From positions 1,530,001-1,562,000 of the forward strand of contig NZ_CP011304.1 in assembly GCF_000981785.2 (NCBI RefSeq): a DNA stretch of 32,000 nt, given 5' to 3'. This DNA comes from Microcystis aeruginosa NIES-2549. GTDB taxonomy: Bacteria > Cyanobacteriota > Cyanobacteriia > Cyanobacteriales > Microcystaceae. A program made the translations under genes and the position numbers. The notes under the pieces are model-generated. The model did not search any database, was not told the origin of the DNA, and saw only the letters and a list, made by a program, of their open reading frames with translations. Below, in pieces: positions 5,890 to 16,919 of this stretch (positions are counted from its first letter, which is position 1; each line of letters begins with the position of its first letter).

Positions 5890-6795
5890 CTAAGGAATCC
5901 AGCGACGGATTTTCGTCCACAAAGGTGCATTATCTTGACTACTCATCTCCTGAAAACTTTGATAACAATCGTAGGCGCGATTAAGATGGGCCGTGATTTC
6001 TGTCGCATTGGGATGGGAATTGCGATCGGGATGCCAATAACACAAGAGAGTTTTATAATTGTTCTCAATCCGGCTAGTCGTGCTAAAAGGAGTAATCCCC
6101 AAAACTCGCCACCAAACGGGATTAGCGGACTCTATAATCATCACGGCCAAGGAACGGGGCGAAGGATAGAGAATTTGGGCGATTAATAACCAATCTGACC
6201 CATAACACACCCGATAAACCGCTTTAACCCGCTCTTTTCCCAACTGTTGACAAGCTTGTAAATGCCATTGACGAAAATCCCTCCGCATCTGCTGATGAGT
6301 TCGCAAATCTCGCCTGGCAAATCTGCCCTCAGCCAGTTTATTAGTGCCAATAGTGTTAAAGTTACCATTAGCGATCGCTTTTAGATCCCAGTAAAGATGA
6401 TAAAAAGGATCTTGACCCAAGGCTAGACTTTCCAGAATTTCCTTAGCGTAACCTCTAGCCGGATTTAATTGCAATAATTCCTCTAATTCCCGACAAAACT
6501 GCTCATTTTCGGGCATACCGCGCCATTGCCAATAATTAACATCCGGTTTTGCCAGAGACTGCCTATATACACTGCGCCACACCTGGGGAACAGTACAGGC
6601 GATCGGGGTAGCCAAGGGAGTAGCCAGGGGATAAGATTGACCCTTTAAAGAGCTTTCAGGAGCATCTTCTAGTAAACAAGCAAGATGATAGGCGGGATGA
6701 CTACGGGGCTTTTTTTGGGGGCTAATAAACCAAAAAGCCGTTAAAATGAGAATTAAGTACAAGAGTAGAGAAAGAATTTGCTCCGCCATCGCCAC
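5890..6795 (-). CDS. Membrane-anchored J-domain (DnaJ-like) protein
   Basis: 301-aa ORF with an N-terminal hydrophobic segment. The C-terminal region LGITPFSTTSRIENNYKTLLCYWHPDRNSHPNATEITAHLNRAYDCY contains the HPD tripeptide of J domains. Confidence 0.65.
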   Translation of the reverse strand: MAMAEQILSLLLYLILILTAFWFISPQKKPRSHPAYHLACLLEDAPESSLKGQSYPLATPLATPIACTVPQVWRSVYRQSLAKPDVNYWQWRGMPENEQFCRELEELLQLNPARGYAKEILESLALGQDPFYHLYWDLKAIANGNFNTIGTNKLAEGRFARRDLRTHQQMRRDFRQWHLQACQQLGKERVKAVYRVCYGSDWLLIAQILYPSPRSLAVMIIESANPVWWRVLGITPFSTTSRIENNYKTLLCYWHPDRNSHPNATEITAHLNRAYDCYQSFQEMSSQDNAPLWTKIRRWIP

Positions 6796-6836
6796 TTTTA
6801 GTTAGTCTGCTCAGTTACCTCAAGAATTATAATTGG

Positions 6837-7694
6837 TGCTATGGTCGCTGAAAAGTTCTTTGTATCTCGGCTGATTGTCAGTAATCCACAAAACGGGGTG
6901 ATATGCCGAAAGTTTCCCCATATCCTTACTCTGGTTATTCGGAAAGTTTTTGTATAATTAATGGTTAGCTGGCCTCGTAATACCACGATGTATCTGATTA
7001 GGAGCGATGTTATGGGACTTAGTGAAAATTTTTTACAGCCAGCATTGTCAGATGATTTTTACTGGCTCAACGAGCCGACGCATTATCGTTTGGGTAATGG
7101 CTTGGAAATTTCTACAGATGAAAAAACTGATTTTTGGCAAAACACGCACTATGGTTTTCAAAGAGATGATGGGCATTGCTTATTGATGCGACAAGTTGGG
7201 GATTTTTCCCTAATGACCCAAGTAGAATTTCAGCCTCGGGAAAAATATGATCAATGTGGCCTAATGGTGCGGATTGACAGTCAGAATTGGATAAAAGTTT
7301 CCACGGAATATGAAAGCGAACAAGCTAGTCGGCTTGGTTCTGTGGTGACCAATTTGGGATATTCTGATTGGGCAACGCAAGACATTTCTTCACGATACCG
7401 CGAAATGTGGTATCGCATCAGTAAACGGGGGAGCGATTTTCTGCTAGAGAATTCTTATGATGGGCAGGCTTGGCTGCAAATGCGGATCACACACTTACAC
7501 AAGATAGCCGACGATTGCCAAATCGGAGTGTATGCCTGCAGCCCGATAGGCAAAGCGTTTCGCTGTTGTTTCAAAACCTTGGAAATCTCAGACAATCAGT
7601 GGCTGGTAATACCAGAAGCCAGCTAATAACTGTATGCACCCGACTGGCACTTATGCGCCTTAACGCCTGGCTTGTTGTGGTTCACGGCTTGTCT
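6837..7694 (+). repeat. 858-bp direct repeat, copy A (leader plus DUF1349-like gene plus 68 bp of 3' flank)
   Basis: Aligns base-for-base, without indels, to 10451-11308 at a constant offset of 3614. I count about 12 mismatches, clustered in the 5' leader and at the 3' end. Confidence 0.95.
7012..7626 (+). CDS. DUF1349-like (concanavalin-like fold) protein, copy A
   Basis: ATG 7012 is preceded by aggag at 7000-7004. The sequence YWLNEPTHYRLGNGLEISTDEKTDFWQNTHYGFQRDDGH... resembles the DUF1349 family (recalled). Near-identical paralog at 10626-11240. Confidence 0.7.
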   Translation: MGLSENFLQPALSDDFYWLNEPTHYRLGNGLEISTDEKTDFWQNTHYGFQRDDGHCLLMRQVGDFSLMTQVEFQPREKYDQCGLMVRIDSQNWIKVSTEYESEQASRLGSVVTNLGYSDWATQDISSRYREMWYRISKRGSDFLLENSYDGQAWLQMRITHLHKIADDCQIGVYACSPIGKAFRCCFKTLEISDNQWLVIPEAS

Positions 7695-7785: not shown

Positions 7786-8754
7786 ATGCTGACCAGTATT
7801 TTGCTGTGGTTGATCGCACTTAGCCTGTTGCTAATCAGCTTCACCCCTGGAGAATGGTACAAGCTGTGGCTCTTTGAGATTTTGGGGGCAGGCTATCTTT
7901 GGTTTGCGGCCTCGACTTTGATATTGCTGTTGGCTCTGTTTTTACCCAGGTTCCGCCCTTCCCGCCGGAAATTGATGATCACCTTAGCTGTAGGGCTGGG
8001 GTTTTATGTCAGCACAATTGCTACCTGGTATGTTCCGAGGTTCCGAGATGCTAGAACTGGTGGTCTCCCATTGACCGTAATGACCTACAACGTCAACTAC
8101 CAACTATGGGAGACCAGTGCCGTGACTAACCTAGTTCGGGCAAATCCCGTAGATATATTCGGGTTAGTTGAACCCCTCAAGGAGCAAGCCGCAGAGCTAC
8201 TAGACAAGGTGCAGGATCTTTATCCTTACTATTACCGCGCAACGGGAGGCGGACTGAGTTTATTTAGCCGCTATCCCATTACAGAGGCAACGACTGATAA
8301 CTTGGGAACCCGCCACCATAGCCTATTCGCAAGCGTTAATGTGACAGGACACCCCATTCGGGTTGTTGTTGCCCATCCCCTTGCCCCTATATCCATACCT
8401 AACTTTATCAATCGTAACCAGGCGATGGTAGCCCTGGCAGCCTATGCAGCACAGCAGTCAATCACCACCGTGATGATGGGTGACTTTAACCTCACCTCCT
8501 GGTCGATTTATTTTCGCAACTTTATCATTAACTCAGGATTACGCAGTGTCAATCTAGGGCATGGACTAAATCCAACCTGGTTTTACGCTGACGGAGCGCG
8601 ATCGCTATCCCATCTCGATCATTGGAAACAAGCTCTAAAAATTCCCATTGACCACATTTTCGTCAGTCAAAATGTCAGGGTTGATCAGGTCATCACACTG
8701 CCTTCAGGTGTATCTGATCATCGTCCAGTGATTGCAAAACTACGAGTGACGTAG
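7786..8754 (+). CDS. Endonuclease/exonuclease/phosphatase (EEP) family protein with an N-terminal membrane region
   Basis: 322-aa ORF with 3-4 N-terminal hydrophobic helices. The catalytic-type C-terminus has GDFN and SDHRPV motifs. It looks visibly more GC-rich than its neighbours. Confidence 0.75.
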   Translation: MLTSILLWLIALSLLLISFTPGEWYKLWLFEILGAGYLWFAASTLILLLALFLPRFRPSRRKLMITLAVGLGFYVSTIATWYVPRFRDARTGGLPLTVMTYNVNYQLWETSAVTNLVRANPVDIFGLVEPLKEQAAELLDKVQDLYPYYYRATGGGLSLFSRYPITEATTDNLGTRHHSLFASVNVTGHPIRVVVAHPLAPISIPNFINRNQAMVALAAYAAQQSITTVMMGDFNLTSWSIYFRNFIINSGLRSVNLGHGLNPTWFYADGARSLSHLDHWKQALKIPIDHIFVSQNVRVDQVITLPSGVSDHRPVIAKLRVT

Positions 8755-9373: not shown

Positions 9374-9396
9374 TAAGGTGGGTAATGCCTGCCTTA
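9374..9396. repeat. Diverged copy of the GGTGGGCAATGCTCACC-type palindromic hairpin element
   Basis: Sequence taaggtgggtaatgcctgcctta is an imperfect palindrome related to the copies at 10183-10207 and 16927-16953. Confidence 0.5.
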
Positions 9397-9696
9397 CTCT
9401 AGGGAAAGTCCAGTAATAATATCTTCTGGGGGAATCCCAGCTTGAATTAAATTGGTTGTTAATCCTTCTTCAAGATTATCATCTTCAATGACAATTTTAT
9501 TTTTCAATAAACGAGCGTGAAATAAAATTGTATTAATCCACGCTTCTTTTTCCCAACCAGTCATAATTATTAAAAAGTTGCCTGATTCTGGATCACAAAC
9601 TGGGGTAATTTTAAGGGTTTGTAATCGAGGTTGCATCGCCGACTCTTTTCTGATAACTTGAGTCAGAATATCGGCATAATTTACTGTGTTATCCAT
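9394..9696 (-). CDS. xisI: XisI family protein
   Basis: MDNTVNYADILTQVIRKESAMQPRLQTLKITPVCDPESGNFLIIMTGWEKEAWINTILFHARL... is typical of XisI. Start taken at ATG 9696; the track start at 9702 is a TTG. The gene overlaps the end of the xisH frame. Confidence 0.8.
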   Translation of the reverse strand: MDNTVNYADILTQVIRKESAMQPRLQTLKITPVCDPESGNFLIIMTGWEKEAWINTILFHARLLKNKIVIEDDNLEEGLTTNLIQAGIPPEDIITGLSLE

Positions 9697-10100
9697 TCGC
9701 AAATTATCTCCTTTTGAGGATTATAAATAATTAAATTGATTCTATTACGTTTAATAACCAGTTGGAAAATAGCTTTTTTGAAGTGTTTTAAATAAACTGC
9801 TTGACTAATGCCCAAAAAAAGTTTTCTTTCAGGTTCTTGTGAATCTAAAGCCCATTGGTATAATTGAAGTTGTCCTATTGTTTTTTCTAATTCACTGATA
9901 ACTGAAGGCGTATCAAAGTCTTTGATTTCTACGGCAATTTTACGTTCTTATTTTTCCGCAGCAAAAAACTTTTCTGCTCCTAAATCAGCTTTAAGCAAGG
10001 TTTTTTCTAAGGTTAGAATTAAAGGATCATCAGTGATTTTCCAACCCTCTTTTTCTAAAGTATGACGTAATGATAAATGTAGATCGTCTCGTCTGGACAT
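9681..10100 (-). pseudogene. xisH: XisH family gene with an in-frame TAA
   Basis: The 420-nt frame from ATG 10100 reads MSRRDDLHLSLRHTLEKEGWKITDDPLILTLEKTLLKADLGAEKFFAAEK*ERKIAVEIKDFDTPSVISELEKTIGQLQLY... The stop is codon 51, at 9948-9950 on the + strand. It has the usual xisH-xisI overlap. Confidence 0.75.
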
Positions 10101-10212: not shown

Positions 10213-10300
10213 CTATTTTCGCTTGGTCAGGCTAGAGACTAACCCTAATCCTCCTAATCCTAACAAGGCAACAACGGAACTCAGTGCAGATCTGGTAGGG
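10213..10300 (-). pseudogene. Remnant of a PEP-CTERM protein C-terminus
   Basis: The minus frame reads ...SALSSVVALLGLGGLGLVSSLTKRK*, a Gly-rich TM helix plus a basic tail as in PEP-CTERM anchors. The PEP motif region is lost where the MITE-like sequence begins at about 10291. Confidence 0.35.
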
Positions 10301-10337
10301 TGTGTTCCCTCATGCAAGTCCTACCGCTGCAGCGATA
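10291..10337 (+). repeat. Partial, diverged copy of the MITE-like element found at 12173 and 13222
   Basis: Sequence tctggtagggtgtgttccctcatgcaagtcctaccgctgcagcgatag aligns with the first ~45 nt of the other two copies (GGTAGGGTG.GTT...ATGCAAGTCCT). Confidence 0.55.
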
Positions 10338-10450
10338 GATTTGAATGATTATAAGCTAAAAACGTCTAGGCACAGCGACGGACGGGAGTGCGAGTGCCGT
10401 CGAATAATTGTAAATTTTTGTTACGAAGTGCAGTCAGATTGAAGAATTAG

Positions 10451-11308
10451 TGCTATGGTCGCTGAAAAGTTCTTTGTATCTCGGCTGATTGTCAGGAATC
10501 TACAAAACGGGGTGATATGCCGAAAGTTTCCCCATATCCTTACTCTGGTTATTCGGAAAGTTTCTGTATAATCAATGGTTAGCTGGCCTCGTAATACCAC
10601 GATGTATCTGATTAGGAGCGATATTATGCGACTTAGTGAAAATTTTTTACAGCCAGCATTGTCAGATGATTTTTACTGGCTCAACGAGCCGACGCATTAT
10701 CGTTTGGGTAATGGCTTGGAAATTTCTACAGATGAAAAAACTGATTTTTGGCAAAACACACACTATGGTTTTCAAAGAGATGATGGGCATTGCTTATTGA
10801 TGCGACAAGTTGGGGATTTTTCCCTAATGACCCAAGTAGAATTTCAGCCTCGGGAAAAATATGATCAATGTGGCCTAATGGTGCGGATTGACAGTCAGAA
10901 TTGGATAAAAGTTTCCACGGAATATGAAAGCGAACAAGCTAGTCGGCTTGGTTCTGTGGTGACCAATTTGGGATATTCTGATTGGGCAACGCAAGACATT
11001 TCTTCACGATACCGCGAAATGTGGTATCGCATCAGTAAACGGGGGAGCGATTTTCTGCTAGAGAATTCTTATGATGGGCAGGCTTGGCTGCAAATGCGGA
11101 TCACACACTTACACAAGATAGCCGACGATTGCCAAATCGGAGTGTATGCCTGCAGCCCGATAGGCAAAGCGTTTCGCTGTTGTTTCAAAACCTTGGAAAT
11201 CTCAGACAATCAGTGGCTGGCAATACCGGAAGCCAGCTAACAACCGTATGCACCTGACTGGCACTTATGCGCCTTAACGCCTGGCTTGTTGTGGTTCACG
11301 GCTTGTCT
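10451..11308 (+). repeat. 858-bp direct repeat, copy B
   Basis: See copy A (6837-7694). Identical length with no indels. Confidence 0.95.
10626..11240 (+). CDS. DUF1349-like protein, copy B
   Basis: Paralog of 7012-7626. Taken from the two annotated start codons, the proteins differ at only two residues: G2R near the N-terminus and V to A near the C-terminus. Confidence 0.7.
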   Translation: MRLSENFLQPALSDDFYWLNEPTHYRLGNGLEISTDEKTDFWQNTHYGFQRDDGHCLLMRQVGDFSLMTQVEFQPREKYDQCGLMVRIDSQNWIKVSTEYESEQASRLGSVVTNLGYSDWATQDISSRYREMWYRISKRGSDFLLENSYDGQAWLQMRITHLHKIADDCQIGVYACSPIGKAFRCCFKTLEISDNQWLAIPEAS

Positions 11309-11358
11309 GTCTTATGCTAGAGTTTCATAATTACCCGAAGCTAATGAGGCCAAAAATA

Positions 11359-11754
11359 ATGGACAAAAATAAGCCAGAAGAAGTTCAAGAAGCAATGATT
11401 TCAGTGGGAGTGGGTACAGCGATTGGAGCTAGTGCATCGGCAGTAGTTGGCGGTATGGGACTTGCTGTAGGAGGAACTGCTCTAGGAGTCGGTATGGCTC
11501 CAGTAGCAGCGGCAGGAGCAGTTGTCGGCACAGCAGTTTACGGAACCAAAAAAGCAATAGAAGAACAAGACGCAACGGCAATTGGAGCAGCGGCAATTGG
11601 TGCGGGTGCTGGAGCCGGTATATCAGCATTAGTTGGAGGTATGGGATTAGCAGTAGGGGGGACGGCAGTTGCAGTGACGATGGCTCCCGTTGCGGCAGTA
11701 GGAGCAGTAATTGGTTTGGCTGGATATGGTATCTCTAAATTATTCACTGAATAA
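11359..11754 (+). CDS. Small Gly/Ala-rich (glycine-zipper) membrane protein with an internal tandem duplication
   Basis: The ORF is open from ATG 11314. ATG 11359 is preferred because gagg lies about 10 nt upstream. There are two ~45-aa repeats, each containing VGGMGLAVGGTA(L/V)..MAPVAA.GAV.G..(V/G)YG. The two repeat copies differ mainly at synonymous codon positions, which argues for real coding sequence. Confidence 0.65.
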   Translation: MDKNKPEEVQEAMISVGVGTAIGASASAVVGGMGLAVGGTALGVGMAPVAAAGAVVGTAVYGTKKAIEEQDATAIGAAAIGAGAGAGISALVGGMGLAVGGTAVAVTMAPVAAVGAVIGLAGYGISKLFTE

Positions 11755-11757
11755 GTA

Positions 11758-12165
11758 ATGGCTAAACGGAAAAGACAGTCCCCCAATGCTGCTCAAAAAT
11801 TAGTAAGAGGAGCAATTCGGGACTTTATTAATCAGGTTAATGGCATAGTTATTGAGCCGGAGATAAATACTCCTGTAAAGGGGACAGAGGCTTGGTATCG
11901 GGACGAACTTGCTAGAGAATTAGGAGGAAAAACCGAGGTTTACATTGATAAGGTAGGTAGAATAGATGTCTTAACTAATACTGAAATAATTGAAGTTAAA
12001 AATACAAAAGGCTGGAAATCAGCGATCGGGCAAATAAAGAGTTATGGACAGTATTATCCTAAGCATAAAATGAGAGTTCACCTATTTGGGAAATTGACTG
12101 AGAGTAAACTAGAAACTATTCAAAGAGTATGTAACCTAGAAGGTATAACTCTAACTTGGGAATAG
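11758..12165 (+). CDS. Small PD-(D/E)xK-like (YraN-like minimal nuclease fold) protein with a basic N-terminus
   Basis: ATG lies 3 nt after the upstream stop. The core is GRIDVLTNTEIIEVKNTKGWKSAIGQIKSY (D...E.K...Q). The N-terminus MAKRKRQSPNAAQKLVRG is strongly basic. The family assignment is inferred from the motif only. Confidence 0.5.
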   Translation: MAKRKRQSPNAAQKLVRGAIRDFINQVNGIVIEPEINTPVKGTEAWYRDELARELGGKTEVYIDKVGRIDVLTNTEIIEVKNTKGWKSAIGQIKSYGQYYPKHKMRVHLFGKLTESKLETIQRVCNLEGITLTWE

Positions 12166-12172
12166 TATGATT

Positions 12173-12291
12173 GCCGCTCTGGTAGGGTGCGTTCGCTAAT
12201 GCAAGTCCTGCTACAAAGCGATCGCTTTTGGGGAACGCACCATGCACATTGATGGCAGCTGTCAGTCTAAGTGCGATGCCGAAGAACGTAG
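12173..12291 (+). repeat. MITE-like repeat, copy 2 (~119 bp)
   Basis: Sequence gccgctctggtagggtgcgttcgctaatgcaagtcctgctacaaagcgatcgcttttggggaacgcaccatgcacattgatggcagctgtcag... is near-identical to 13222-13334, apart from a 6-nt indel. It has an internal inverted repeat GGTGCGTTC/GAACGCACC. Confidence 0.85.
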
Positions 12292-12514: not shown

Positions 12515-12901
12515 ATTGTTCGATCCAATCGGTCAATCTGGCCAAACCCTCCTTATATGTTTCGAGACCACCGGCAAGACCAAGAAAGAAAGTGACCGTT
12601 TCTGCTTCGCTGGCGTTCAAGCGATAGCCGTTCTTTCGCAAAAAAGTTGAAACGGTGGCCAGAGCTATACGTTTATTACCATCGCAAAAGCAATGATTTT
12701 TGACAAAACCGTAGTCATAAGCCGCCGCTAACTTAAAAATCGATGATTCGGGTTCGTACTGAAAAAAGAATTTTGGCTTATTGACAGTGGACTCTAACAG
12801 GGTTGGGTTTAAAACTCCTTGAGTCCCCCGGTTCGAGCGATTAAAATTTCCTGAATCACCCTAATCGCATCGCTCGATAACCATTTCGGTTCCTCGATCA
12901 T
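12492..12901 (-). pseudogene. doc: Doc/Fic-family toxin gene with a -1 frameshift in a G run
   Basis: The first frame MIEEPKWLSSDAIRVIQEILIARTGG ends in a stop. The downstream frame TQGVLNPTLLESTVNKP...VKNHCFCDGNKRIALATV... carries an intact Fic motif HxFxDGNKR. Length is 410 nt. The frame breaks at C5 12825-12829 (G5 on the coding strand), and one extra G would restore it. ATGA overlap with the antitoxin stop. Confidence 0.8.
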
Positions 12902-13125
12902 TATTTGGCGAGTTCCTTGAAGGCGTTGCGGTACTGAGAATAAGTATCTTCAAAAGCTTTCATGGTTTCTTCAAAATCGGGATCAAAGCCAGAAATTCTG
13001 TATCCATCTGGCGATTCCGTGATATAAATCTGATCTCCTTCCTCTACGTTTAGTCGGGATAAAACCTCTTTCGGTAAGATCACACCTATGGAATTGCCGA
13101 TTTTTCGGAGCGTTAGACTTGTCAT
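12901..13125 (-). CDS. AbrB/MazE/SpoVT-type antitoxin (Doc partner)
   Basis: The 74-aa sequence MTSLTLRKIGNSIGVILPKEVLSRLNVEEGDQIYI... shows the looped-hinge-helix signature. It lies immediately upstream of, and overlapping, doc. Confidence 0.8.
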   Translation of the reverse strand: MTSLTLRKIGNSIGVILPKEVLSRLNVEEGDQIYITESPDGYRISGFDPDFEETMKAFEDTYSQYRNAFKELAK

Positions 13126-13172: not shown

Positions 13173-13221
13173 CTAACTGCCCAAAGAATTATTTTAAAGA
13201 AAAAGACTTCCGATCGTGAAA

Positions 13222-13334
13222 GCCGCTCTTGTAGGGTGCGTTTCCTAATGCAAGTCCTGCTACAAAGCGATCGCTTTTGGGGAACGCACCATGCACATTG
13301 ATGGCAGCTGTCAGTGCGATGCCGAAGAAGGTAG
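13222..13334 (+). repeat. MITE-like repeat, copy 3 (~113 bp)
   Basis: See 12173-12291; same orientation. It accounts for most of the track ORF 13189..13416. Confidence 0.85.
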
Positions 13335-13373: not shown

Positions 13374-13482
13374 GGATCTCTTTGAGTGTCATTAGTGCGA
13401 TCGCTTTTCTTGTCAACAGTTCTAACTCATGCTGATTTTGATATAATAGCCATAATTGTTTGACATCTTAAGAGAAAAAATC

Positions 13483-13737
13483 ATGATTAGAGCGATTAAA
13501 CAGAAAGGAATTGTTGGCAGAGAAGGAAAAATAGAGCTTTATTCTACGGAACTAGAAGAAGGAACAGATGTGGATATTATTATTTTAGTATCTGATCCTG
13601 AACCCGATACAACCGAATATCTTCTTTCAACAGAAGCCAATCAGCGTGAATTATCCGAAGCTATTGACAGAATAGAAAATAAAGAAAACTTAGTGACAAT
13701 TGCCGTAAAAGAATGGCGTGAAAAATATAGTATTTGA
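13483..13737 (+). CDS. Antitoxin with a YefM/Phd-like C-terminal toxin-binding region
   Basis: ATG 13483 (MIRAIKQKG...). The C-terminal TEYLLSTEANQRELSEAIDRIENKENLVTI resembles the YefM C-terminus, but the N-terminal half does not look like canonical YefM. It overlaps the yoeB-like frame. Confidence 0.55.
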   Translation: MIRAIKQKGIVGREGKIELYSTELEEGTDVDIIILVSDPEPDTTEYLLSTEANQRELSEAIDRIENKENLVTIAVKEWREKYSI

Positions 13738-13978
13738 TCCGAAAGCTTTTAAACAATTCAATGAATGGGCGATAGAAGACAAAAAACTCTATTAAAAAAT
13801 CGTTGATTTAATTGACGACATATTGCGCCATCCCTTCTCTGGAATCGGTAAACCCGAACCCTTAAAACATCAACTCAAGGGTTATTGGTCAAGACGCATT
13901 AATGATGAACATCGCTTAGTTTATAAAATTACAGAAACAGAAATTATTATTATCAGTTGTAAATTTCATTATGACTAG
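13718..13978 (+). pseudogene. yoeB: Txe/YoeB-family toxin gene with an in-frame TAA
   Basis: The 261-nt frame from GTG 13718 reads VKNIVFDPKAFKQFNEWAIEDKKLY*KIVDLIDDILRHPFSGIGKPEPLKHQLKGYWSRRINDEHRLVYKITETEIIIISCKFHYD*. The TAA is at 13793-13795. Confidence 0.8.
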
Positions 13979-14023: not shown

Positions 14024-14348
14024 CCATTGCTTGGGATAGGAACGCCAAGGTCGATCGCTTTTTGGGGCAAGAGAAGGAACGATCGCATCTCTCCTAGGGT
14101 AGAACGCTGATGGCAATAGTCAACAACTTACCCGAAAAAGCTAGATTTTGTAACAAAAATTAGTATTACTTAGGGCTGTGTATAGAGAAGTTGCGAATTG
14201 TTAACCTTAGCTTTGCTAGGAAAATAAAATGTGATACTGTGACCCCAAGGCCGTGAAAAACGGCCAGGTTTTCAGTTTTTTTAAACATCAGGTCGCCACA
14301 TTCTACAGCTATTTTCGCTCAAAAAAAAACGATTTTCTAGGCATTTCC

Positions 14349-16919
14349 ATGACTTATCTTGTTGAACATCCTTCTACAACCTTTTATTCCTATACCGATA
14401 CGGGGGTCGATCCCCTGAAAACCGCTCACGGAGTTTATATCACGGTTCACGGACATTTTTACCAACCACCGCGAGAAAATCCCTATCTAGACAGAATTGA
14501 ACGGCAACCGAGCGCCCATCCCTTCCATAATTGGAATGAACGCATCCATCACGAGTGTTATCGTGCCAATGCTTTTGCACGCATTTACAATGACCGGGGG
14601 GAAGTAATCAAAATAGTCAATAACTACGAATATCTCAGCTTTAACATCGGGGCCACCCTAATGTCATGGATGCAATACCATGATCCCGAAGTTTACCAAC
14701 GCATCCTGACAGCGGATCAAAAAAGTTGTCAACGCTTAAACGGTCATGGTAACGCCATCGCCCAGGTCTATAATCATATCATTCTGCCCCTAGCCAACAA
14801 ACAGGACAAATACACCCAAATTCGCTGGGGAAAAGCCGATTTTCAGCATCGTTTCGGCCGTGATCCCGAAGGAATGTGGTTAGCGGAAACAGCCATTGAT
14901 TTAGCCACAGTGACAGCTTTAATCGATGAGGGGATTAAATTCACCATTTTAGCCCCTTCCCAGGCCCTGCGCTGTCGTCCTTTCCCTAGCGACCATGATC
15001 CCCATCCCCAATGGCACGCGGTGGCCGGAGGTCAAATCGATCCCACCCGTCCCTATCGCTGTTACATCCCCGATGGTCGTTATCTGGATATTTTCTTCTA
15101 CGATGGTCCAATTTCTCGGGATATGGGCTTTAATGATGTCCTAGCCAGCAGTGATTTTCTCGTCGGTCGTCTGGGACAGGCAATTAAAGGGGATCATCGT
15201 CCCTCCCAGTTAATCAGCGTCGCTACCGATGGGGAAACCTTCGGCCACCACAAACAGGGGACAGAGAAGTGTCTTAGCTATGCTTTTACGGAATCTTTCC
15301 CTAAAAACGGCTGGACAGTCACCAATTTTGCCCATTATCTCAGTATTTGCCCCCCCACTTGGGAAGTGGAATTAAAACCCGTGACCGCATGGAGTTGCTT
15401 CCATGGCGTAAATCGTTGGCAGGATGACTGTGGTTGTGGGGGAGGGGGAAATTACCAGCAAAAATGGCGTAAACCCCTGCGGGAGTCCCTAAATTGGCTC
15501 AGAGATGAGTTAATTAAGGTTTATGAGATTCAGGGACGGGAATTTTTCCGGGATCCTTGGCAGACAAGGGATGACTACATTGCAGTTATTTTAGATCGAT
15601 CCCCAGACGCGATCGAACATTTCCTCGCTTTGCATCAAAGTCGCAACCTGAGTAAAAGCGAGAAAATCGATGCTTTGCGTTTATTAGAAATGCAAAGACA
15701 GGCTTTATTGATGTTTACCAGTTGTGGCTGGTTTTTTGAGGAAATTTCTCGACCTGAAGGCACGCAAATTTTGAGATATGCTGGCCGGGCCCTGGAATTA
15801 GCCGGAGAAGTGGCCGGAATTCAATTAGAAATGAATTTCCTCAGTCGTCTAGCTTTCGCTTCCAGTAACGTTAAGTTATATCAAGATGGGGCTGATGTCT
15901 ATCGACAATTGGTCACTTCTGCGCGGGTGGATTTGGAACAGGTGGCGGCCCATTACGCTATTAGTTCTCTATTTACCAATTATCCCAGTCATCATCGGAT
16001 TTATTGTTACAATACCCGTCAATTAGATTATCAAAAACAAGCGATCGGGTCTTTAACTTTAGCGGTGGGACAGGTGGAATTAACCTCGGAAATTACCCAA
16101 GAAAGTGAACATTTTGTCTTTGCTGTTCTACATTTAGGAGGTTGGGATTTTTACTGCTGTATTCAACCTTTTAACGGTCGGTTAATCTATACCAATCTTA
16201 AGGACCATCTCTTTGAATCTTTACAACAGGCCAGTGTCTCAACCATGATCGTAGAAATGGGGCGCGGATTGGGAGAAAACTTTTTTGCTTTACCCCATCT
16301 TTTTGCCGACGAAAGACACCGGATCATGCAGAAGGTGACAGCCGAAACTAAAAAACGTCTCGATCAATTATACACCCAAGTTTATCGGGATAATTACGGC
16401 ATTTTAGCGGCTTTCCAACGGGATGAGCTGCCCGTACCTCAAGAGTTACAGGTAGCGGCCGATATTGCCATTTCTCACCGTTGTTTACAGGTGATTAATA
16501 CCCTAGAAAAAGATTTTGAGCAGCGGCAAGCGACGGAAAATAATCTCGATCAATTATTGGCTATTGCTAAGGAAGCCAATCATTTACGCTGTCAATTAAA
16601 TATTCCCGAAGCGCGTCAAACCTTAGAAAGTCTGCTCTGGCAATCTCTTTGGAAATTATTACACGATGGCGATCCTTTAACGGCGGAGGAGGATACTCGC
16701 TTAATCACCCGTTTAATTGAAGTTAGCCAACAATTAAACCTAGGATTATCCCTCGATCGCTCTCAGGAATTATACTATAATTATTTCCACGAGCGTCTAG
16801 TTCCTAATTGTTTGCGGTCTAATTCAATAGATGCTTCCTGTCCCTGGCCGATGACTCAATTAAAATGGTTATTACTATTAGGACAGGTGTTAAAAGTTGA
16901 TGTGAGTATTTGGCTGTAA
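14349..16919 (+). CDS. Glycoside hydrolase family 57 protein with a DUF3536-type C-terminal region
   Basis: GH57 motifs HGHFYQPPRENP, GMWLAETA and TDGETFGHH. ATG 14349 (MTYLVEHPST) is preferred; the track start at 14253 is a GTG. Confidence 0.85.
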   Translation: MTYLVEHPSTTFYSYTDTGVDPLKTAHGVYITVHGHFYQPPRENPYLDRIERQPSAHPFHNWNERIHHECYRANAFARIYNDRGEVIKIVNNYEYLSFNIGATLMSWMQYHDPEVYQRILTADQKSCQRLNGHGNAIAQVYNHIILPLANKQDKYTQIRWGKADFQHRFGRDPEGMWLAETAIDLATVTALIDEGIKFTILAPSQALRCRPFPSDHDPHPQWHAVAGGQIDPTRPYRCYIPDGRYLDIFFYDGPISRDMGFNDVLASSDFLVGRLGQAIKGDHRPSQLISVATDGETFGHHKQGTEKCLSYAFTESFPKNGWTVTNFAHYLSICPPTWEVELKPVTAWSCFHGVNRWQDDCGCGGGGNYQQKWRKPLRESLNWLRDELIKVYEIQGREFFRDPWQTRDDYIAVILDRSPDAIEHFLALHQSRNLSKSEKIDALRLLEMQRQALLMFTSCGWFFEEISRPEGTQILRYAGRALELAGEVAGIQLEMNFLSRLAFASSNVKLYQDGADVYRQLVTSARVDLEQVAAHYAISSLFTNYPSHHRIYCYNTRQLDYQKQAIGSLTLAVGQVELTSEITQESEHFVFAVLHLGGWDFYCCIQPFNGRLIYTNLKDHLFESLQQASVSTMIVEMGRGLGENFFALPHLFADERHRIMQKVTAETKKRLDQLYTQVYRDNYGILAAFQRDELPVPQELQVAADIAISHRCLQVINTLEKDFEQRQATENNLDQLLAIAKEANHLRCQLNIPEARQTLESLLWQSLWKLLHDGDPLTAEEDTRLITRLIEVSQQLNLGLSLDRSQELYYNYFHERLVPNCLRSNSIDASCPWPMTQLKWLLLLGQVLKVDVSIWL

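Follow-up and report, generated by a model that had tools for sequence, protein, structure and literature searches.

A two-gene operon of cyanobacteria pairs a predicted Gly/Ala-rich membrane protein with a minimal PD-(D/E)xK nuclease fold

What is the function of two small, closely spaced genes that stand intact in the genome of Microcystis aeruginosa NIES-2549, in a region where nearby toxin genes are truncated? We analysed a stretch of 32,000 nt from this strain (the window, whose positions are used as coordinates throughout), in which two co-directional open reading frames (ORFs) on the plus strand, 11314..11754 (146 aa) and 11758..12165 (135 aa), lie 3 nt apart, as a first-pass annotation of the sequence had stated. 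We refer to the first gene as GZ, which encodes a Gly/Ala-rich protein, and to the second as NUC, which encodes a protein with a nuclease fold. The same annotation suggested that the pair may have an abortive-infection or toxin-antitoxin role, with GZ as a membrane-perturbing effector and NUC as its sensor. Here we report that the two genes form a real, intact and conserved operon, present across cyanobacteria and previously undescribed (no account of the pair was found in the literature searched). As to its function, we tentatively favour, at somewhat less than even confidence, a reading that reverses those roles, in which NUC would be the nuclease effector and GZ, a protein linked to membrane stress, would dock or control it.

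Co-occurrence in other genomes had been set beforehand as a test of the pair, and the pair passes it. Our searches retrieved 72 NUC homologues, and GZ is found immediately upstream in 39 of the 41 loci that hold a full-length NUC orthologue (51-99% identity); of the two exceptions, L028 is cut by a contig end and L009 has a different upstream gene. The genes flanking the pair are unrelated across Microcystis, Snowella, Merismopediaceae, Synechocystis and uncultured metagenome-assembled genomes. In Microcystis the order is DUF1349, the pair and then a variable island; in a metagenome-assembled genome the pair is accompanied by DUF433, a phosphoglucomutase gene lies further upstream and a gene for a solute-binding protein lies downstream; another lineage shows CCB1, the pair and MutS, and housekeeping genes flank the pair in Synechocystis strains. 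Since the neighbours differ completely between lineages, the pair moves as a unit. Within Microcystis both genes are under purifying selection, as judged from the ratio of nonsynonymous to synonymous substitutions (dN/dS), which is 0.02-0.15 for GZ and 0.06-0.15 for NUC. The distribution of the pair is restricted, with only about 25 species-level genomes carrying it in a genome scan. No relatives of GZ were found in 2.9 million viral contigs, and the 46 viral contigs that carry the NUC core domain have neither the N-terminal helix of NUC nor GZ. Together with the lack of any PHROG match for GZ or NUC, these results set the pair apart from a structural or lysis module of a prophage, an origin that would have counted against the first-pass annotation.

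The core of NUC (residues 41-135, 11878..12162, plus strand) contains E44, D70, E79-x-K81 and Q92xxxY96, and the string GRIDVLTNTEIIEVK...IGQIKSY. A core of the form D-x(n)-E-x-K-x(n)-Q had been pointed out before, and an alignment of 30 NUC homologues gives it further weight, with E44, D70, E79, K81, Q92 and Y96 all invariant. A glutamate in helix 1, a D...ExK triad and a QxxxY motif are hallmarks of RecB/Cas4-type PD-(D/E)xK enzymes. In the AlphaFold model the same residues 41-135 are predicted with high confidence (predicted local distance difference test, pLDDT, 94-98) as an alpha-beta-beta-beta-alpha-beta-alpha-beta arrangement, whose elements include the helices 44-55 and 83-97 and the strands 58-63, 67-72, 76-82 and 104-110. 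A Foldseek search of NUC against the PDB gave no match at E < 1e-3, the floppy N-terminus depressing the scores; the matches of highest probability, none of them at E < 1e-3, are nevertheless PD-(D/E)xK domains, namely those of Avs4, XPF-ERCC1, FAAP24 and MUS81-EME1. A sequence-profile search of the PDB with the NUC alignment returned nothing at E <= 10. The nearest structural neighbours came from predicted viral structures (BFVD), where Foldseek matched NUC to the C-terminal domains of giant-virus KilA-N proteins with E values from 8e-11 to 6.5e-07 and 22-40% identity, followed by phage restriction-endonuclease and RecB-family proteins. In the curated family libraries (Pfam, NCBIfam) no match to NUC rises above threshold, and the sub-threshold matches all belong to PD-(D/E)xK families: Cas4b (E 7.6e-4), NucS (15.6 bits against a cut-off of 216), PDDEXK_9 (best E 0.011), HSDR_N and Tox-REase-7. 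We conclude that NUC adopts a minimal PD-(D/E)xK nuclease fold in which all catalytic residues are in place, and for which nuclease activity is predicted from sequence and model; the fold itself had been anticipated by the first-pass annotation. The invariance of every catalytic residue indicates that catalysis, and not mere binding, is under selection.

By itself the NUC core is a widespread module, which is fused to KilA-N, winged helix-turn-helix (HTH), DUF5674 or zinc-finger domains in cyanobacteria, Burkholderia, Desulfonema, phages and giant viruses. No true homologues of the NUC core are closer than these fusion proteins, in which the nuclease is the C-terminal domain (31-53% identical; P0065-P0072, L031-L056), but they combine the nuclease with a DNA-binding domain within one polypeptide and lack GZ as a neighbour, while NUC has a short N-terminal helix in place of the DNA-binding domain. 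A core of the NUC type forms the C-terminal domain of many giant-virus KilA-N proteins, from phaeoviruses, mimiviruses, moumouviruses and giant-virus metagenome-assembled genomes (BFVD entries Q6XM53, A0A2P0VMM5, A0A6G6ADR0 and A0A2L2DKL7; loci L110, L114, L122, L124, L137 and L139), and no Pfam model covers this domain of the giant-virus proteins. NUC shares the core fold, the helix-1 glutamate E44, D70, E79-x-K81 and QxxxY with the RecB/Cas4-like branch; it differs from the members of the PD-(D/E)xK superfamily in falling below every curated family threshold and in its unique N-terminal helix. Although QxxxY is present, NUC is not a Cas4, since its single cysteine (C124) leaves it without the four-cysteine Fe-S cluster, and it lacks the N-terminal domain of NucS.

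The strongest evidence for a coupling of NUC to GZ comes from the region that precedes this core. Residues P9-G29 of NUC (PNAAQKLVRGAIRDFINQVNG, 11782..11844, plus strand) form an amphipathic, basic helix module, modelled by AlphaFold with lower confidence as a helix over residues 11-27, with a hydrophobic moment of 0.57 and invariant Q13, R17 and N28. At loci retrieved through GZ alone, the gene that follows GZ often encodes a protein of 105-139 aa whose N-terminal ~30 residues resemble NUC and whose C-terminus is an HNH endonuclease, confirmed by Pfam in the swapped versions at 1.5e-14 and 1.2e-16. The helix of one HNH version, MTRQSLNPVQKLVRGVIRDLIHQANSEK, can be set against that of the window, MAKRKRQSPNAAQKLVRGAIRDFINQVNG, and the consensus PNPLQKLVRGxIRDxINQxN is common to the PD-(D/E)xK and HNH versions. 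The helix-HNH form is found in filamentous cyanobacteria, among them Nostocales (Calothrix parasitica), and also at one locus with a GZ very similar to the one of Candidatus Parabeggiatoa. An exhaustive search of 1.84 billion representative proteins with a profile of the helix returned 31 proteins at E <= 1e-3, of which 29 are 43-139 aa long; in 28 of these 29 the helix is N-terminal, and those whose sequences were retrieved are HNH, PD-(D/E)xK or truncated proteins. The remaining two are repetitive proteins of 765 and 474 aa that match over short stretches only and are apparently spurious, so that in this search the helix is confined to the present family. Loci found through GZ alone tell the same from the other side. 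In the 29 with enough downstream sequence, counted after correction by hand at L074, L087, L089 and L091, where a second GZ paralogue lies downstream of the first, an adjacent nuclease gene with the N-terminal helix is present in 23 (9 PD-(D/E)xK, 13 HNH and 1 truncated) and absent from 6. Among the loci retrieved, a nuclease with the helix was never seen apart from a neighbouring GZ gene. As read from these sequences, the catalytic domain has undergone a non-homologous displacement behind a constant adaptor helix, and the presence of two unrelated folds behind one helix, next to GZ, suggests that the helix couples the nuclease to GZ and that the nuclease is an exchangeable effector.

The nuclease is also the member of the pair that decays. 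Beside an intact GZ, frameshifts, truncations or stop codons recur in the nuclease gene (L143, L144-146, L074, L075 and L092). In Calothrix parasitica the HNH gene (L143, 8001-8350) contains in-frame stop codons; an HNH-gene allele with a 1-nt insertion is found on 12 contigs (L144 7779-8150, and also L145 and L146), and in L144 the HNH frame can still be read past the frameshift and retains its catalytic motifs; frameshifts or truncations of the nuclease gene occur in L074 (3405-3897), L075 and L092 (1489-1826). A word-indexed protein search with the helix profile returned only short fragments, and many fragments of 43-72 aa are found in the databases. The sole NUC without GZ, at L009 (5522-6407), has a degenerate N-terminal helix and an intact core, with a serine recombinase nearby. 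This pattern fits a costly or toxic effector that is conditionally dispensable and depends on GZ. The upstream gene of L009 encodes a 157-aa protein that is 36% identical over 77 residues to a 154-aa protein encoded after the helix-HNH gene in L074 and L089, and this sequence relation suggests that the system may have a third recurrent component.

GZ in turn is a protein of 24% Ala and 21% Gly, most probably of 131 aa (11359..11754, plus strand), for which four membrane helices are predicted. It consists of two repeats, each a predicted helical hairpin, at residues 12-63 (11392..11547) and 72-126 (11572..11736), separated by a charged loop, KKAIEEQD (11548..11571), in which K65 and D71 are invariant in the GZ alignment; all of these lie on the plus strand. 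The tandem repeats and the concentration of their differences at third codon positions, both described in the first-pass annotation, hold up on measurement: the 36-aa repeat cores (AVVGGMGLAVGGTALGVGMAPVAAAGAVVGTAVYGT and ALVGGMGLAVGGTAVAVTMAPVAAVGAVIGLAGYGI) share 27 of 36 residues and 69% nucleotide identity, and their nucleotide differences fall 6/6/22 by codon position (dN 0.19, dS 1.6). The third-position bias at this level of identity argues for an old duplication with the peptide under selection, and an ancient origin is indicated as well by the two-repeat architecture that GZ has in common with homologues across cyanobacterial orders (53-82% identical). The conserved unit, GGMGLAVxGTAVGxxMAPVAAxGAVxGxAxYG, is present in one or two copies; single-hairpin versions of 61-85 aa exist, and one locus with two tandem single-hairpin genes looks like an intermediate. 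The motif YGxKKAxEE follows the hairpin in two of three single-hairpin genes (L078 and L084).

No Pfam, NCBIfam, PADLOC or PHROG family matches GZ. The glycine-zipper proteins of Pfam comprise families of the Gly-zipper and Rick_17kDa_Anti type; GZ resembles them in its Gly/Ala-rich hydrophobic segments with small-xxx-small (GxxxG-type) motifs, but it has a conserved unit of its own, and none of 27 aligned GZ proteins matched any of the Pfam glycine-zipper models. Two charge-free stretches of 52 and 55 residues, with Kyte-Doolittle values of 1.3-1.8, suggest that GZ is inserted into the membrane. A sub-threshold match to the TcdA/TcdB pore domain was obtained at E 0.18 and 0.005. A copy of GZ disrupted by an insertion sequence (P0073) was considered as a test of the essentiality of GZ and proved uninformative, an intact pair being present in the same genome. 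In another Microcystis genome (CP086723.1; L147, 4001-4744) a partial second GZ and a fragment of IS605 OrfB form an in-frame fusion, about 1.3 kb 3' of an intact pair.

The suggestion of membrane insertion is strengthened by fusions of the GZ domain to PspA/IM30. The domain is found at the N- or C-terminus of PspA/IM30, or inserted between the PspA N-terminal helix (MGQLFxRxxxxVRANLN) and helix 1, and fusion or adjacency was seen in P0100, P0102, P0119, P0122, L059, L060 and L075; no description of such a membrane-anchored GZ-PspA architecture was found in the literature searched. Among these proteins, GZ-carrying PspA/IM30 paralogues of filamentous cyanobacteria were noted at L059 4640-5788, L075 2866-3933 and L060 4001-4738. 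PspA is cytoplasmic, and because it is fused at the ends of GZ both termini of GZ probably face the cytoplasm; in that topology the loop KKAIEEQD would be cytoplasmic too, as a candidate docking site for the NUC helix. The fusions thus tie GZ to membrane-stress biology. Filamentous cyanobacteria also have clusters of a PspA gene (with or without a GZ insertion), GZ, the helix-HNH gene and genes for a 154-aa protein, a 107-121-aa protein and a GZ-WD40 protein. The last is a protein of 580-586 aa (L087 2959-4719, L089 2821-4560) with an N-terminal GZ, a segment like the PspA C-terminus, WD40 repeats confirmed by Pfam and a C-terminal J-domain-like segment read by eye from the sequence. There is no PspA gene in the window, and the DnaJ-domain protein encoded there (5890-6795, minus strand) was ruled out as a relative of the GZ-WD40 protein, since it has no GZ domain. 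A derivation of the NUC helix from the PspA N-terminal helix (helix alpha0) was likewise rejected; the two look alike and have similar hydrophobic moments (0.57 and 0.58), but the hhalign comparison was not significant (P 0.22).

Considering all these data, the nuclease behaves like an effector or toxin, being an interchangeable domain behind a conserved helix and subject to repeated decay, while GZ behaves like an anchor or sensor, being strongly conserved and linked elsewhere to PspA/IM30, as a fusion or a neighbour, and by fusion to WD40 repeats. Thus, the effector role of GZ and the sensor role of NUC put forward in the first-pass annotation are not favoured. We propose that GZ would be a small integral membrane protein of two helical hairpins with its termini and charged loop in the cytoplasm, and that the amphipathic, basic N-terminal helix would dock NUC to it, possibly at the YGxKKAxEExD segment that follows the GZ hairpin. 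GZ would then serve as an anchor, sensor or regulator, with NUC held latent at the membrane. A perturbation of the membrane or of GZ, such as phage entry, lysis or envelope stress, might release or activate NUC, which may cut DNA, and the pair would be a toxin-like module of the defence or suicide type. A more far-reaching version, which we consider unlikely, takes GZ as a hitherto unrecognised membrane-integrity sensor domain common to repair proteins of the PspA/ESCRT-III type and to a small 'licensed' nuclease: mild damage would recruit repair, and irreparable damage, as in phage lysis or envelope collapse, would free the helix-docked nuclease to destroy DNA.

Several observations weigh against the proposal that GZ holds a nuclease effector at the membrane. 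The hydrophobicity of GZ is borderline for transmembrane helices, and its AlphaFold model, although it has four helices, is of low confidence (pLDDT 51). The invariant positions of the NUC helix are polar (Q, R, R, N) and would also fit a DNA-recognition helix. PADLOC (PADLOC-DB v2) gave no match for GZ and only the weak Cas4b match for NUC, in line with the remark in the first-pass annotation that no named system was recognised. Outside Microcystis the pair does not appear to lie in defence islands (housekeeping genes surround it in L007, L057, L143 and L144), and GZ of filamentous cyanobacteria occupies a conserved, apparently vertically inherited site, beside a gene of the FrhB/FdhB family; genes of defence or toxin-antitoxin systems do not typically behave in this way.

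Other explanations of the pair have to be weighed against the same data. The model of the first-pass annotation amounts to a RexAB-like system, in which GZ would be a pore effector opened by a DNA-binding sensor with the NUC fold. The two-gene operon, the GxxxG-type motifs of GZ, as in pore-forming glycine-zipper proteins, and the weak, sub-threshold TcdA/TcdB match (E 0.18 and 0.005) are in its favour, but the catalytic residues of NUC are all invariant, and the nuclease is replaced by an unrelated HNH domain with intact catalytic motifs, whereas sensors are seldom replaced by another catalytic fold. Moreover, GZ stays intact where the nuclease has decayed and its module is found in PspA and WD40 proteins at conserved chromosomal sites, unlike a suicide pore, and we regard this explanation as the least probable of all. 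A plain toxin-antitoxin addiction pair, with NUC as a toxin neutralised through sequestration by GZ at the membrane and no dedicated role in defence, would account for the small co-directional genes, 3 nt apart here and overlapping as ATGA in L143 and L144, for the frequent loss of the toxin-like gene next to a retained upstream gene, for the toxin-antitoxin genes around the Microcystis pair and for its relocation as a unit. Nevertheless, the conservation of GZ far exceeds that of typical antitoxins, GZ contains no DNA-binding domain through which it could regulate its own expression, and it occurs alone and in PspA fusions. The pair is also single-copy and largely vertically inherited, and an addiction pair is quite unlikely in our view.

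The nuclease might instead be a selfish, free-standing gene of the homing-endonuclease type that resides at the GZ locus, its adjacency to GZ being explained by a helix and basic linker that recognise DNA of the GZ region. Mobile endonucleases classically have HNH or PD-(D/E)xK as their catalytic domain; phages, giant viruses and mobile regions encode the NUC core in fusion with KilA-N, HTH or zinc-finger DNA-binding domains; the nuclease repeatedly degenerates in situ beside an intact neighbour; and the polar or basic nature of the invariant helix residues, together with a Lys-rich linker in the HNH versions, would suit DNA recognition. These arguments are countered by an apparently long-term and vertical retention under strong purifying selection across Microcystis species and related genera, and by the lack of any nuclease-free allele among about 20 Microcystis loci: all those retrieved carry the nuclease gene, and in-situ decay is seen elsewhere. 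The same short helix also stands before two nuclease folds, and the linker of the PD-(D/E)xK version is not basic. To our knowledge, cyanobacteria are not known to have a chromosomal homing system of such a free-standing type, and we judge the homing explanation quite unlikely as well. A housekeeping role, as an accessory of PspA/IM30-linked membrane maintenance whose nuclease clears nucleic acid at repair sites or processes incoming DNA, would agree with the very strong conservation of GZ, with its fixed position beside the FrhB/FdhB-family gene and with the clusters of PspA fusion, GZ, helix-HNH, 154-aa, 107-121-aa and GZ-WD40 proteins. It is difficult to reconcile with a nuclease that is frequently a pseudogene, hence dispensable, with a swapping of catalytic domains that is typical of conflict systems, and with the absence of the pair from many cyanobacteria (about 25 species-level genomes have it), and it too seems to us of low probability.

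The proposal of a nuclease effector under the control of GZ has counterparts among known systems in its logic. Kiwa, with KwaA and KwaB (PMC11785009), and Zorya, with ZorAB and ZorC/D (PMC11946911), combine a membrane component and a cytoplasmic DNA-targeting effector and respond to changes in the envelope; PADLOC detected neither of them here. By analogy the pair may follow the same logic of membrane sensor and DNA effector; the likeness is confined to this proposed logic, as there is no sequence relation, GZ and NUC are far smaller, and neither a motor nor a large supercomplex domain is present. The small partners of PspA, namely PspB/PspC and LiaI, have been reviewed (PMC11237479), and GZ is comparable to them in being genomically fused or adjacent to PspA/IM30 in other cyanobacteria; it is however unrelated to them in sequence, and its partner here is a nuclease. 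That survey (PMC11237479) makes no mention of glycine or nuclease. The pair resembles type II toxin-antitoxin systems with nuclease toxins in several respects: it consists of two small genes, side by side and in the same direction, which are 3 nt apart here and overlap at other loci; its downstream nuclease is frequently lost; and in Microcystis it occupies a toxin-antitoxin-rich region. It differs from them in that the upstream partner is a conserved membrane protein, as predicted, and not a DNA-binding antitoxin, and in that GZ-NUC is single-copy and largely vertically inherited.

Three elements described here have no model in the libraries searched: the GZ domain, the PD-(D/E)xK subfamily that NUC has in common with giant-virus KilA-N proteins, and the 30-residue adaptor helix. 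The exchange of the catalytic domain behind a constant adaptor and next to a constant membrane partner points to a real functional coupling, and the link between GZ and PspA/IM30, including the insertion after helix alpha0, offers a handle on the anchoring of cyanobacterial ESCRT-III-like proteins. If membrane damage triggers the nuclease, this compact module would add a new case of immunity or programmed death based on membrane sensing, in a cyanobacterium that forms blooms. If GZ in addition reads membrane integrity, the pair would represent a new class of suicide or defence modules triggered at the membrane, with a possible bearing on programmed cell death and bloom collapse in Microcystis.

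As to the locus itself, the longest possible GZ frame opens at 11314, but the true start is probably the ATG at 11359 (MDKNK..., 131 aa). A ribosome-binding-like motif, GAGG (11346..11349, plus strand), was read from the sequence 9 nt ahead of this ATG; a promoter-like site, TTGTCT-17 nt-CATAAT (11303..11331, plus strand), lies within the longer ORF and is weak, the consensus scan giving a single match, no more than in shuffled sequences; and a 132-aa product is annotated in 5 of 6 other Microcystis assemblies. These three points together support the later start. NUC (11758..12165, plus strand) begins 3 nt past the GZ stop.

Upstream, a direct repeat (6831-7694 and 10445-11308, 98.5% identical) ends 6 nt before position 11314; the spacing agrees with the first-pass annotation, and the length is 864 bp instead of the 858 bp given there. 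Each copy holds a complete DUF1349 gene (6961-7626 and 10575-11240), and the 2.75 kb between them contain an Exo_endo_phos gene (7786-8754), XisI (9394-9702, minus strand) and a truncated XisH (9948-10100, minus strand). In other Microcystis strains one DUF1349 copy stands directly ahead of the pair. Downstream, the cassette is directly followed, as described before, by a repeat of 99 nt like a miniature inverted-repeat transposable element (MITE; 12168-12266, no strand assigned), which marks the boundary and lies outside the module; another copy (95%) lies at 13217-13315 and a partial one of 38 nt at 10285-10322, and the copies are dispersed across the region of toxin-antitoxin remnants.

The description of the surroundings as a decayed toxin-antitoxin island is correct for this window, where XisH covers 50 of 134 profile positions and YoeB is a fragment of 51 aa (profile positions 32-80, 13823-13978), with a MazE-type antitoxin also near the pair; as a general setting it does not stand, being specific to Microcystis. 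Decayed toxin-antitoxin pairs occupy 12809-13125 (minus strand) and 13456-13978 (plus strand). In the former, a MazE/AbrB-type antitoxin (12901-13125, minus strand) is followed only by a 30-aa ORF that resembles, by eye, the N-terminus of a Doc-type toxin, and in the latter a 93-aa ORF (13456-13737) with no significant Pfam match precedes the YoeB fragment. Beyond these remnants lies a GH57 gene (14253-16919). Around the pair in Microcystis, toxin-antitoxin genes are found upstream and genes for DndB or HNH/ScoMcrA-like proteins plus 3'-phosphoadenosine-5'-phosphosulfate (PAPS) reductases downstream, and Abi_2 lies about 4 kb from the pair in L010-L012. In other Microcystis strains (L001-L006) the downstream genes form a variable two-gene cassette, absent from this window, some 0.5-4 kb 3' of the pair, which consists of a DndB or an HNH_2/ScoMcrA-SBD-like protein, each with a PAPS-reductase-domain protein, and whose genes look like defence genes related to DNA phosphorothioation.

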